DNA of 64,000 bases from a bacterium (GTDB taxonomy: Bacteria > Patescibacteriota > Patescibacteriia > JACPHY01). The stretch covers positions 18,196-82,195 of the forward strand of contig JAUSKG010000022.1 in the NCBI GenBank assembly GCA_030647005.1. Direction: 5' to 3'. The translations under genes were made by a program, and so were the position numbers. Shown here piece by piece: positions 38,426 to 42,400 of the stretch (its first letter is position 1; the number at the start of each line of letters is the position of its first letter). The notes under the pieces are model-generated. The model did not search any database, was not told where the DNA came from, and was given only the letters and a program-made list of their open reading frames with translations.

Positions 38426-41400
38426 CTAGGGCGGGCTCACGAATGAAACCTCGTCAATCACCATTGCAATACGCGCAGTACTACTGGATGCCACAAGCCG
38501 GAGACGCGTGCCCTCAATGGCGACATCCAACACCGTTTCGAACACGAGCACGCCGTCTATGAAGTACGCGAGGCGCTCTCCTTCCGTGAACTGCCAGGTG
38601 ATGTGGTACCACCGTCCCATGGCGAGCACCATACCAAGATCTTCCATGAAGGACGACCCGTCTGCGTGCACCACCTCCACTCTTGCGTATTCACTCGACG
38701 CGGCGAATCGCACCAGTGCTGTCGTGGCGAACATCGCTTGAAAAAGCATCCCCACGTTCGCACCGCCGATCATCACCTGCGGGAAAATTCGTACCCCGCC
38801 AACGACATCCGACGCACAAAACAGCATCGGCCACTCGAATACTGCTTGCGTCGTCCCCTCCTGATAGGTCACGTCTACTGCAAGCGAACGGCTACCGATC
38901 GGCGTGCGATTCGGATCCTCGGTGTCCACGGGGGTCTGCACACAAGTGAGCGGCACGTCGCTCGTCACGGTTGCCTCCGGCATTGCACAGTCGTCTTCGA
39001 AATCCTCAAGGAACGTCATGCCGTTATCACGCCCGTCACAATCGGAATCCAATGTATCGCCGCAGATCTCTTGCGTAGGTAATACCTCGCCGTCGCACAC
39101 GCCCCACCACGCGGTACGACACTCGTCGGGCTCGATGGAACAGTAGACCGGAACCTGGGTGACGGGAACGTTGGCTGCCAGGCCGATGTACGGCATGCAC
39201 GTCTGGAGGCCGTTTGTACACGCGCCGATGCCAAGCGTATCCGGAGGGCCGGAGTAGCACGGCTGGACGAGCGGAAAGATGTTGCCGGTGCCGTCCACCG
39301 TCGCGTCCGCAGCACCGTCACAGTCCTCATCGAACCCGTTGCACCACTCGGCGGATGGGTAGACGGCACCGACGCACGTCCGCACGCCGTCCGCGCACAG
39401 CGTCGTGCCAGTTCGACACACGCCGATGCCTTCCGTGCTTTCCGGACCGTTGTAGCACACGACCATGGGGATGCCCTCATCCGTGTTGCCGTCGCAGTCA
39501 TTGTCCACGCCGTCGCACGTCTCGGTCGTCGCGTCGCCGGGTGCAACGCTGCACGCGATCGCCGTATCGCCCGCACAGCCCCACACGCCTGTGCGCTCAC
39601 AGACACCGCGGCCCACGTCACACTCCTCACCAAGGAGCAGGGACCATGGCTCGTCTACGTCGCCGTCGCAGTCGTTGTCCGCGCCGTCGCAGACCTCATC
39701 GGGAAAGCCGTCATCCACGGCATCGTTGCAATCGTTATCGAGACCGTCGCAGACCTCATCGGTTGGCTCGATCTCGATCGCGATGACTGTGGGGACACCG
39801 CCGATGCACGCCGTCACGCCCTGCTGGCATGCGCCGACATTCGTGCCCGTGATGTCTGGAACGAGGTCGTCGAGCTCGTCTGTTGCGCCATCGCAGTCGT
39901 TGTCCACGCCGTCGCAACGCTCGGTCGTCATGCTACCGGACGCAACGCTGCACGCGATTGCCGTGTCGCCTGCGCAGCTCCACACGCCCGTCCGCTCGCA
40001 CGCGCCACGACCCACGCTGCACTCCTCGTCAACGAGGAGCGACCACGGCTCATCGGTGTCACCGTCGCAGTCGTTGTCCACGCCGTCGCAGACCTCCTGG
40101 GAAGGAAACGTGCCGGAGCACAGACCCCATGCGCGAGCGATGCAGTCCTGCACGCCCTCGATGCACGTGCCGCTCGTGAAGGCGCAGGGCCGCTCGATGC
40201 CCGTGTCGCAACAGCCGTCTACACCCTCATCGGTGTTGCCATCGCAATCGTTGTCGGTGCCATCACACGTCTCGTCCACGGGCACCATGATCTCCGCATC
40301 GCACACCGCACCGCTCCCGTCTGGCGCACAGCGCATCTCGCCCGTACGCTCGCACGCGCCAGTGCCGATGGAACAAGTATCCCCGATGACCGCATCCCAC
40401 GGCTCATCGGTGAACCCGTCGCAGTCGTTGTCCGCGCCGTCGCAAACTTCTGCGGATACATCACCCGCCACGACATCGCAGTCGCAATGCATACCGTCTG
40501 CCGAGCACACCGACGTGCCGGATCGTTGGCAGACACCGCGTCCCACGGTGCAGGGTTCACCGACGCAGCCGAACTGCTCGTCGGTGTTGCCGTCGCAGTC
40601 GTTGTCTGCGCCGTCGCAGAGGTCCGGCTCGGGCATGGTGCCGGAGCACGCGCCCCAGGAGAACGTCGCATCGCACCACTGCTCACCGGCGACGCACGCG
40701 CCCTCGCCAGTGGAGCACGACACGCGCGTATCGGGGATGCAGCAGTCGAGGAGACCTTCGTCCACGGTACCGTCGCAGTCGTTGTCGTCGCCGTCGCAGG
40801 CCTCGTCCGTCGGTTCGAGCCCGGAGCACGCGCCCCACGCGCGAGCGATGCACTCCTGCGTGCCGGTCGTGCACTGACCGATCTCCGTCGAGCACGCGCG
40901 CGTGAGGCCCGTCTGGCAGCAGCCATCGCCGAGCCCGTCATCGCGCTCGCCGTTGCAGTCGTTGTCGATCCCATCGCACATCTCCGCGGACGGGTCGCCG
41001 GGCACCGCGCCGCAGACAACGCTGAACCCATCTGCCGTACACACCGTCACACCGTCCGCACGACAGGGGCCGATGCCGACGCTGCACGGAATGCCGAGCA
41101 TCGCCGCGTAGAGCTCATCCACGGTGCCGTCGCAGTTATTATCGCGGCCGTCGCAGAAGTCCGGTGATGGGAGAGTGCCGGTGCAGGACTGCCACTTCTG
41201 ATCCGCACCGCACCGCTGCTCGCCCACGACGCACGTCCCGACCATCGTCGAGCACGAAGTGATGGTCCCGGGCTGACAGCAATCCACGATGTCCTCATCC
41301 ACCGCACCGTCGCAGTCATTGTCCACGGTATCGCAGACCTCCGCTGCGGGCATGGTGCCCGTGCACGTCCCCCATGCGCGCCCCGCATCGCACCGCTGCC

Positions 41401-42400
41401 GACCAATCGTGCATGCACCGATCTCGGTGCTGCAGTAGCGTTCGGTATCCGGCACGCAGCACGCGTCGCCAAACCCATCGTCTACGACACCGTCGCAATT
41501 GTTGTCGAGACCGTCGCAGATCTCCGCAGATGCGTCGCCGGGCATCGCATCGCAGACGACACGAAACCCGTCATCGCTGCACACGGTTGTCCCATTGCGC
41601 TGGCACGGCCCGACGCCCACGGTACACGGAGTACTGAGCTCATCCATGAACAACTCATCTACCTCGCCGTCGCAGTTGTTGTCGAGACCGTCGCAGAGGT
41701 CAACGGTTGGGATGCCAGGTTCTGCGTTGCATGCGGTCCCACCGCCGCGCGGCGCGCAGGTGATGGTACCCATGGCGCGGCACACCCCCTCGCCGACCGC
41801 GCACGCGGTCCCGAGGTCGCCGAAATCCTCGTCCGTCGCGCCGTCGCAATCGTTATCGAGATCGTCACAGGCCTCATTCTTGGAGTGCTGCGCCTGCTGG
41901 ATGGTATCTTCAACACCTGTGACGCAGGTGACGATCTCCTCCTGGCACTCGCCAACAGCGGTGCCGAAGTGTCGCTCATTGAGATCCTCGTCTGTCGCAC
42001 CGTCGCAGTCATCATCGCGCCCGTTGCAGACCTCCGCAACCGGTGCGCCAGCCGTCACGCTACAGCGCGGGGCACTGCCGTCCGTCGCACAGAGCGTCTC
42101 GCCCGTGCGCTCGCACGCGCCAACCCCCACGCTGCACGACTCGCCGAGTCCATCAAATCCCTCGTCCACCTCGCCATCGCAGTCGTTGTCCGCGCCATCG
42201 CAGACCTCGTCGCTGCCACAGCGAAGCGCCCACTGTGCGTCGTCGAGACACACCGCGCCGAGCGATGTCTGCGCGCACCGGTACCTGGTGGCGCACGCGC
42301 CGTCCGCATCACAGGCGAGATAGTCACTCAAAGGGCCAAAGTCCATGGCGCACGCACCCACGAGGGATGTGAGCGCCGCCATCACCACATATCTTCGCAT
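38426..42400 (-). CDS. secreted giant Cys/Asp-rich repeat protein (~19 CDGxDNDCDGxxDE repeats) with LamG-like C-terminal domain
   Basis: Start MRRYVVMAALTSLVGACA (signal peptide), preceded by GGAGGA. Repeats include CDGADNDCDGEVDEGF, CDGLDNNCDGVVDDGF and CDGVDNDCDGNTDEGI. The C-terminal ~220 aa are a beta-sandwich/LamG-like segment. The Arg/Ser-rich 115-aa N-terminal extension in the ORF track is spurious. Confidence 0.75.
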   Translation of the reverse strand: MRRYVVMAALTSLVGACAMDFGPLSDYLACDADGACATRYRCAQTSLGAVCLDDAQWALRCGSDEVCDGADNDCDGEVDEGFDGLGESCSVGVGACERTGETLCATDGSAPRCSVTAGAPVAEVCNGRDDDCDGATDEDLNERHFGTAVGECQEEIVTCVTGVEDTIQQAQHSKNEACDDLDNDCDGATDEDFGDLGTACAVGEGVCRAMGTITCAPRGGGTACNAEPGIPTVDLCDGLDNNCDGEVDELFMDELSTPCTVGVGPCQRNGTTVCSDDGFRVVCDAMPGDASAEICDGLDNNCDGVVDDGFGDACCVPDTERYCSTEIGACTIGRQRCDAGRAWGTCTGTMPAAEVCDTVDNDCDGAVDEDIVDCCQPGTITSCSTMVGTCVVGEQRCGADQKWQSCTGTLPSPDFCDGRDNNCDGTVDELYAAMLGIPCSVGIGPCRADGVTVCTADGFSVVCGAVPGDPSAEMCDGIDNDCNGERDDGLGDGCCQTGLTRACSTEIGQCTTGTQECIARAWGACSGLEPTDEACDGDDNDCDGTVDEGLLDCCIPDTRVSCSTGEGACVAGEQWCDATFSWGACSGTMPEPDLCDGADNDCDGNTDEQFGCVGEPCTVGRGVCQRSGTSVCSADGMHCDCDVVAGDVSAEVCDGADNDCDGFTDEPWDAVIGDTCSIGTGACERTGEMRCAPDGSGAVCDAEIMVPVDETCDGTDNDCDGNTDEGVDGCCDTGIERPCAFTSGTCIEGVQDCIARAWGLCSGTFPSQEVCDGVDNDCDGDTDEPWSLLVDEECSVGRGACERTGVWSCAGDTAIACSVASGSMTTERCDGVDNDCDGATDELDDLVPDITGTNVGACQQGVTACIGGVPTVIAIEIEPTDEVCDGLDNDCNDAVDDGFPDEVCDGADNDCDGDVDEPWSLLLGEECDVGRGVCERTGVWGCAGDTAIACSVAPGDATTETCDGVDNDCDGNTDEGIPMVVCYNGPESTEGIGVCRTGTTLCADGVRTCVGAVYPSAEWCNGFDEDCDGAADATVDGTGNIFPLVQPCYSGPPDTLGIGACTNGLQTCMPYIGLAANVPVTQVPVYCSIEPDECRTAWWGVCDGEVLPTQEICGDTLDSDCDGRDNGMTFLEDFEDDCAMPEATVTSDVPLTCVQTPVDTEDPNRTPIGSRSLAVDVTYQEGTTQAVFEWPMLFCASDVVGGVRIFPQVMIGGANVGMLFQAMFATTALVRFAASSEYARVEVVHADGSSFMEDLGMVLAMGRWYHITWQFTEGERLAYFIDGVLVFETVLDVAIEGTRLRLVASSSTARIAMVIDEVSFVSPP

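Follow-up and report, generated by a model that had tools for sequence, protein, structure and literature searches.

A 64,000-nucleotide stretch of a Patescibacteriota genome (assembly GCA_030647005.1, contig JAUSKG010000022.1, positions 18,196 to 82,195 of the forward strand; this whole stretch is called the window below) carries, beside a long operon for the biosynthesis of surface sugars, a gene for a 1324-residue protein built mostly of repeats rich in cysteine and aspartate. What is this protein, and why does its gene stay with a glycan locus? The answer that we hold to be somewhat better than an even bet is that it forms a lipid-anchored, disulfide-rich stalk stiffened by Ca2+ and presenting a variable ConA-like binding head, that is, an adhesin or lectin of a bacterium of the candidate phyla radiation (CPR). 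The protein is already deposited and named, and it belongs to a large family recognised as a Pfam motif. Specific to this case are the rare ConA-like head, a module type with eight cysteines, the CPR host, and the conserved place at glycan loci.

The original prediction of a 1324-residue open reading frame (ORF) holds: there is a complete coding sequence of 1324 codons and a stop at 38426..42400 on the minus strand, encoding a PF11617-repeat protein, a predicted lipoprotein, with a ConA-like C-terminal domain. Its product is identical to the NCBI nr entry "MAG: MopE-related protein [bacterium]" of 1324 amino acids. The longest form of the frame, with the same end at 38426, begins with a GTG at 42745 and would encode 1439 amino acids. 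This start was rejected: the added N-terminus is arginine-rich, overlaps both the preceding gene and a long hairpin (see below), and is missing from the NCBI protein and from the orthologues. The ATG at 42400 was taken as the start because of this arginine-rich overlapping extension, the length of the NCBI protein, the orthologues, whose N-termini share the beginning of the ORF read from this ATG, and the spacing of a Shine-Dalgarno-like GGAGGA (42405..42410, minus strand), read from the sequence 4 nt before the ATG.

A signal peptide had been predicted and is supported by a sequence rule, but its type is that of a lipoprotein. The rule asks for positive charge in the n-region, hydrophobicity in the h-region and a lipobox [LVI][ASTVI][GAS]C whose cysteine is at position 15-35. 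The N-terminus (amino acids 1-17; 42350..42400, minus strand) reads MRRYVVMAALTSLVGA followed by the cysteine at position 17 and satisfies the PROSITE PS51257-style regular expression, with arginines at positions 2 and 3, an uncharged h-region and then L-V-G-A-C, the lipobox being VGA before the predicted lipidated C17. Similar N-termini occur in relatives (VTGC in P0014, LGAC in P0015, VAAC in P0023, MGSC in P0057), and 66 of the 120 best homologues have one too. Thus an exported, surface location, as first proposed, is likely from the lipobox. A segment with five cysteines (amino acids 18-66; 42203..42349, minus strand) precedes the first repeat and is kept in the orthologue P0014.

The bulk of the chain (amino acids 67-1100; 39101..42202, minus strand) is an array of 18 modules, supported by a regular expression, by cysteine spacing, by a repeat family at the DNA level and by an AlphaFold2 model. 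A pattern search for CDGxDNDCDGxxDE gives 18 clear motifs and one degenerate copy, CGDTLDSDCDGRDN, near amino acid 1113, in agreement with the approximately 19 repeats counted initially; the form D-x-[DN]-C-[DN]-[GD]-x-x-D fits 18 motifs out of 18. Each module consists of the 14-residue acidic CDGxDNDCDGxxDE loop followed by a cysteine-rich spacer. The spacers fall into a six-cysteine type A (C6C14-15C6C7C8C), an eight-cysteine type B with a CC doublet (C6C10-11CC7C6C6C7-8C), short four-cysteine forms, and forms of the pattern CY.GP...G.G.C. The module length had been given as 16-40 amino acids; the actual period is 53-61 amino acids (159-183 nt), typically about 59, with a single unit of 20 amino acids (60 nt).

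The absence of periodicity had been named beforehand as a possible refutation, and here the repeats are upheld: a seed-and-extend repeat finder detects a 54-nt unit in 18 copies that are 63-89% identical. Tandem Repeats Finder reported just a 21-nt repeat of 1.9 copies, having missed the modules because the DNA is too diverged. The regular spacing of the 18 DNA copies implies that the repeat is real and old. The proposed assignment to PF11617 (Cu-binding_MopE) is correct as well, with 18 stretches, an E-value of 6.2e-74 and 244.3 bits against a gathering cut-off of 27. At E <= 0.1 no other Pfam family, TSP_3 and the EGF types included, was found in the whole protein, and a scan of NCBIfam at the same threshold gave no family, so that the suggested Myxococcus cysteine-rich repeat or other TIGRFAM-type family did not hold up. 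No PDB chain matched the whole protein at E < 0.01, and PDB searches with a C-terminal profile and a motif profile found nothing either. An AlphaFold2 model of an A and B module pair has a mean pLDDT (predicted local distance difference test) of 92.4 and matches no fold in PDB. The mature chain contains 124 cysteines, an even number with room for 62 disulfides, and is extremely acidic (259 Asp and Glu against 51 Lys and Arg, only two of them Lys; net charge about -200). Histidine occurs five times in the 1324 residues and never in the repeat motif, and threonine makes up 8.5%.

Which metal, if any, do the loops hold? The core of the motif, D-N-D-C-D-G-x-x-D, is of the DxDxDG type. In published work the PF11617 consensus was aligned with the C-rich core of teneurins, which, like thrombospondin type-3 repeats, share with the present protein a cysteine-flanked core D-N-D-x-D-G-x-x-D (PMC3278476). 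In the 1.5 A crystal structure of teneurin-4 the equivalent Asp and Asn residues coordinate Ca2+ in a geometry resembling that of thrombospondin type-3 repeats, with calcium adding to the stability of the protein (PMC9058538). When the motif profile was compared with the human teneurin-1 C-rich core DNLDNDGDGLTDC by hhalign, 13 columns were aligned with 54% identity (P 9e-4, hhalign probability just 24%). The likeness to thrombospondin-3 noted originally thus holds at the level of the motif (hhalign; PMC3278476, PMC9058538): the acidic loop D-x-D-x-D-G-x-x-D of thrombospondin type-3 repeats and teneurins is present, whereas membership in the TSP_3 profile or fold is not seen. The teneurin element is also a single copy of about 38 amino acids, with glycine where our motif has cysteine, whereas our module of about 59 residues has an additional cysteine-rich beta-hairpin part.

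On the other hand, the family takes its name from the copper protein MopE. In MopE* and CorA, Cu(I) is held by two histidines and a tryptophan-derived kynurenine in a beta-rich domain, the acidic Ca2+ site is separate, and crystal structures exist for both proteins (PMC3912023). PF11617 spans a small part of MopE and was judged non-specific for MopE and CorA (PMC6189053). Both are secreted or surface-associated and share the short acidic motif of the PF11617 type (PMC3912023, PMC6189053), but they are single-domain proteins rather than repeat arrays, and their copper site and beta-sandwich fold have no counterpart here: neither the two histidines with kynurenine nor a homologous domain is found. 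Hence the description as a MopE-like metal-binding repeat stands as far as PF11617 membership goes and misleads if the copper site of MopE is meant. As the repeats contain no histidine, no PDB chain matches and the motif is teneurin-like, we infer Ca2+ rather than copper, and the loops probably bind the former.

The repeats are followed by the degenerate nineteenth motif and a conserved neck (amino acids 1101-1170; 38891..39100, minus strand), defined by the family alignment and containing CGDTLDSDCDGRDNGMTFLEDFEDDCAMPEATVTSDVPLTCVQTPVDTEDPNRTP and the stretch FLEDFEDDCAMPEATVTSDVPLTCVQTPVDTEDPNRTP. The neck is modelled with low confidence (pLDDT below 50) and holds a Thr/Ser-rich stretch, PEATVTSDVP. 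The remaining part (amino acids ~1171-1324; 38429..38890, minus strand) is a fast-evolving beta-sandwich of the ConA-like or LamG-like kind. In six family members the mean pairwise identity is 68% in the neck and 33% in the head. The C-terminal end had been described as a beta-rich, LamG- or lectin-like domain of about 220 residues; its character is as described, but the folded domain covers about 155 residues and comes after the conserved neck of about 60.

The head is rare. With the C-terminal 189 amino acids as query, word-seeded searching gave no match and missed even the parent protein. When 1.84 billion representatives were searched exhaustively with phmmer, the head had five clear relatives (E from 2e-49 to 3e-15) and ten weak matches (E from 2e-7 to 6e-4); five of the ten were checked, and all five are proteins with multiple Laminin_G_3 domains. 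Laminin_G_3 itself scores 15 bits on the head (E 0.028), below its Pfam gathering cut-off of 27.6. A model from six sequences is all-beta, with 12 strands and a pLDDT of 70-85, and has the jelly-roll sandwich of the ConA-like fold. Membership in this fold class is supported, the assignment being to the class and to no subfamily. Residues invariant in the six-member family are W, C, G, V, D-G, W, W, F, Y, G, G, A and D. Because the domain has the size of galectins and LamG domains and contains no recognisable catalytic set, a binding role is favoured over an enzymatic one. Fast divergence of the head is as expected for a recognition module.

These parts suggest how the protein could work. Firstly, the lipobox would be cleaved and Cys17 lipidated, anchoring the protein on the outside of the membrane. 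Secondly, 18-19 modules of about 59 residues would follow, each with a D-N-D-x-D-G-x-x-D loop chelating probably one or two Ca2+ and each clamped by two to four disulfides; the resulting stalk would be stiff, protease-resistant and highly anionic, its rigidity depending on calcium. Finally, the conserved neck would bear the rapidly diverging ConA-like/LamG sandwich at the far end, the ligand-binding part, whose ligand would most likely be a carbohydrate of a partner or host cell or the glycan of the cell's own envelope. The gene would be its own transcription unit, yet retained in the lineage at the head of a surface-glycan biosynthesis locus. For CPR bacteria, large cysteine-rich extracellular proteins have already been proposed to mediate attachment (PMC4736985).

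Several points weigh against the stalked adhesin or lectin. The lipobox is predicted by a rule, and the binding of Ca2+ is deduced from the similarity of a 13-residue motif. The synteny described below is confined to one related clade and could reflect shared ancestry instead of function. In the literature we found no experiment on PF11617 repeat proteins of this type, and no functional work on PF11617 or MopE-related proteins or on CPR bacteria and nonulosonic acids.

What then is the relation to the glycans? The minus strand carries both our gene and the long glycan operon, and the original prediction, which placed the gene immediately 3' of the operon, had the orientation reversed: the gene lies upstream, on the 5' side, and is separated from the PseB-like gene (36510-37565, minus strand) by a gene for a citrate-synthase C-terminal domain (37575-38423, minus strand) and by a hairpin. 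The association with the glycan locus as such is real, and it is conserved in the related loci L001, L003, L005 and L007. In L001, L003 and L005 (the start also in L002) the order is the orthologue of our gene, two genes resembling the beta and alpha subunits of ATP-citrate lyase (ACL), the citrate-synthase domain, PseB, DegT and further genes up to NeuB. In the window it is ACL-beta-like, ACL-alpha-like, GtrA, FolD, a hypothetical gene that we call hyp387, our gene, the citrate-synthase domain, PseB and so on. In the more distant L007 it is GtrA, a homologue of hyp387, a divergent family member (hhalign E 8e-5 against the C-terminal profile), a Wzz-like gene, Wzx, glycosyltransferases and Wzy, and NeuB is absent. 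In L006, a metagenome-assembled genome labelled Uhrbacteria, a partial relative comes directly after a hyp387-like gene and about 6.6 kb downstream of leucyl-tRNA synthetase (LeuRS), UDP-glucose dehydrogenase and an epimerase. Between these genomes, identity is 34-42% for the whole protein and 59-81% for the neighbouring enzymes. The rare relatives with this C-terminal domain are invariably found at the head of a surface-glycan locus, of either the nonulosonate or the Wzx/Wzy type; as the Wzx/Wzy locus of L007 lacks NeuB, the linkage is to surface-glycan loci in general and not specifically to nonulosonate.

A narrower version of the adhesin would be dedicated to recognising a partner or host of an Uhrbacteria-like lineage of ultra-small, probably episymbiotic bacteria: a rigid Ca2+-dependent stalk would carry a hypervariable lectin head beyond a nonulosonate-rich coat, and the gene would stay beside the glycan locus so that coat and adhesin match. 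We put this forward tentatively, as a possibility with the chances clearly against it.

One alternative is a structural, S-layer-like (surface-layer-like) glycoprotein of the envelope: the protein would be a main constituent of the surface and would accept the nonulosonate glycan that the adjacent operon makes. The gene is directly upstream of the ACL-like/PseB/DegT/NeuB locus in L001, L003 and L005 and within the locus in the window; the protein is exported by prediction, large and rich in threonine; the conserved neck has its Thr/Ser-rich stretch; and S-layer proteins of Tannerella bear O-glycans capped with nonulosonate (PMC5420450). However, Pfam recognised in the locus no protein glycosyltransferase and no Maf- or OTase-type family, several of the ORFs being without a family, and it found no S-layer or self-assembly domain in the protein. 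Besides, the related gene in L007 precedes a Wzz/Wzx/Wzy locus that has no NeuB, the hairpins set the gene apart from its neighbours, and a fast-evolving, lectin-like terminal head suits a binding protein better than a lattice protein. We regard an acceptor role as unlikely.

It is more doubtful still that the protein is a stalked glycan-processing enzyme, with the ConA-like head acting as a PL7- or GH16-like lyase or glycanase that trims, releases or remodels the polymer of the adjacent locus. The fold class is that of the head, but the head of about 155 residues compares with 210-260 for PL7 and GH16 catalytic domains, its identity to such enzymes is 5-12%, neither a conserved His, Gln or Arg nor an ExDxxE-type catalytic set is among its invariant residues, and its weak sequence matches are non-catalytic Laminin_G_3 repeats.

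Extreme acidity and 18-19 putative Ca2+ loops would also suit a protein that passively buffers Ca2+, nucleates mineral or acts as an anionic shield, in which cation binding is the function and the head has no specific ligand; this we judge very improbable, since the conservation of the neck and the folded but diverging end of the chain point to a specific distal function and the stalks of homologues carry diverse binding or enzymatic heads. The weakest candidate, a protein for the acquisition of copper or another metal related to MopE/CorA of methanotrophs, which the Pfam name Cu-binding_MopE and the NCBI name would suggest, is largely refuted and effectively excluded by the ligands, histidine count, structure searches and family specificity given above.

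The protein can be placed among its relatives. More than 3800 PF11617 homologues were found at E < 1e-10; where these are named, they come mostly from Myxococcota, Bradymonadia and Patescibacteria. With the multi-repeat lipoproteins of these groups our protein has in common the motif repeated many times, the six-cysteine A module, a frequent N-terminal lipobox and a variable C-terminal head. Homologues typically match in the repeat part only, and their other C-terminal domains include Fibrinogen_C, VWA, RCC1 and subtilase. The highest identity in the repeat region, 49%, is to P0015, whose Fibrinogen_C end supports the view that such stalks are generally built to take exchangeable heads. What distinguishes the sub-family from the wider family is the lineage-specific ConA-like head, the B modules and the glycan-locus position. 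By pattern, B modules occur in our protein and in five of the 59 best matches tabulated (P0014, P0015, P0023, P0045 and P0057), among which only P0023 is labelled Uhrbacteria. The LeuRS of the window shares 63% identity with "Candidatus Uhrbacteria" proteins, and almost all of its best matches that bear a name are from Uhrbacteria or other candidate phyla of the Patescibacteria group; judged by these matches, the host is Uhrbacteria-like.

Another parallel is a set of proteins of Peregrinibacteria, likewise from CPR genomes, large, exported, very cysteine-rich, variable between strains and proposed for attachment (PMC4736985). Genomes with those proteins also invest heavily in surface sugars, but a PF11617 stalk with a ConA-like head is not among their described features, nor is a linkage to glycan loci (PMC4736985). 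Some homologues bear the source label "Notch-like protein", the sole use of that name, and the Pfam scan at E <= 0.1 found no EGF family in our protein.

From the sequence of its flanks, the gene appears to be transcribed as a unit of its own, with hairpins on either side. A GC-rich hairpin with a stem of 9-11 bp followed by AUUUCGUUCAUU (38386..38410, minus strand) lies 16 nt past the stop codon and looks like an intrinsic terminator. A consensus terminator scan did not call it, because its T-run is weak. Hairpins are also present 3' of the orthologous genes in L003 and L005, and a weak promoter-like site lies between the stop codon and the PseB-like gene. On the other side, the 5' intergenic region contains a long hairpin (42438..42493, minus strand) with a perfect stem of 20 bp, 26 bp at 96%, and a 4-nt loop. 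The arms of the perfect inverted repeat are at 42441-42460 and 42471-42490; its folding z-score is -8.8, it occurs once in the window, and it has no U-tract. The original prediction had a perfect 20-bp hairpin following the gene; the inverted repeat exists, but it precedes the start codon by 38 nt and comes directly after the stop of the preceding gene. Rfam gave for this region sub-threshold matches to generic hairpins (microRNA or small nucleolar RNA), which were dismissed as chance. The long hairpin may mark the end of the transcript upstream or belong to our gene as a 5' element. A second, adjacent hairpin at 42487-42508, with a GC stem of 9 bp and no U-tract, overlaps the stop of the upstream gene, and the pair are candidates for termination, mRNA stabilisation or regulation of the downstream gene.

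The preceding gene, hyp387, is located at 42507..43670 on the minus strand, with a probable start at M66 (MQFLRTW..., near 43475). Its product consists of a signal peptide, an unassigned domain of about 150 amino acids, a proline-rich linker and two C-terminal hydrophobic helices, and it matches no family in Pfam. Homologues stand directly upstream of a MopE-type gene in L007 (1606-2994; 28% identity over 281 amino acids) and L006 (8789-9766; 31% over 96), and none is found upstream of the orthologues in L001 and L003. The product may be a membrane partner of the lipoprotein.

Two observations concern the related loci. The sequence of L003 (CAZPCZ010000027.1) is titled "uncultured Gammaproteobacteria bacterium"; its genes are 62-76% identical to those of the window, and the label looks wrong. 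In L006 a large serine recombinase (7145-8752; Resolvase, Recombinase and Zn_ribbon_recom) lies between the sugar genes and the pair of hyp387-like and MopE-type genes; it hints at mobile-element activity or rearrangement, which fits the differing gene orders among the relatives.

The sugar-biosynthesis region itself covers about 35 kb of co-directional genes (~1600-37565, minus strand). It includes three NeuB paralogues, three cytidylyltransferases of the CMP-transferase type, four DegT-type aminotransferases, PseB, two formyltransferase-like genes, a HisH/HisF-like pair, an AsnB-like amidotransferase, a methyltransferase and several ORFs without a Pfam family. This set suggests that more than one modified nonulosonic acid may be made. 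At 33988-36513 (minus strand) a DegT/PseC-like and a class-III aminotransferase are fused in an ORF of 841 amino acids; in L001 they are separate (7464-8666 and 8674-9963). Three genes on the minus strand, with ATP-grasp_2 and Citrate_bind (46215-47282), CoA_binding and Ligase_CoA (45252-46205) and the citrate-synthase C-terminal domain described above, resemble a split ATP-citrate lyase or a citryl-CoA synthetase and lyase, which is unexpected in a Patescibacteria-like genome. In three relatives the trio is directly upstream of PseB (L001 3736-6401, L003 10953-13657, L005 2225-5076); in the window the block of GtrA, FolD, hyp387 and our gene splits the third gene from the first two. It is a speculation that these genes supply acetyl-CoA for the N-acylation of nonulosonate. 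The G+C content of the window is 56-67% (about 62% on average, which is high for Patescibacteria), GC skew is negative nearly throughout, and the minus strand holds nearly all of the genes.

For the family, the consequence is that the name "MopE-related" or "Cu-binding" misleads for thousands of proteins, the evidence favouring Ca2+ loops of the thrombospondin/teneurin type. By itself the protein reveals no new kind of system. For the organism, a 4-kb surface-protein gene beside about 35 kb of glycan biosynthesis in a small CPR/Patescibacteria genome marks the cell surface as a major investment. If the narrower reading, a dedicated adhesin for partner or host recognition, is true, coat and adhesin might be matched by the head binding the cell's own glycan or by the stalk being decorated with it, and the protein would give a concrete molecular handle on the attachment of CPR cells. 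The conserved neck, the divergent head and the fixed place at glycan loci make it a reasonable candidate for attachment studies in this uncultured group.

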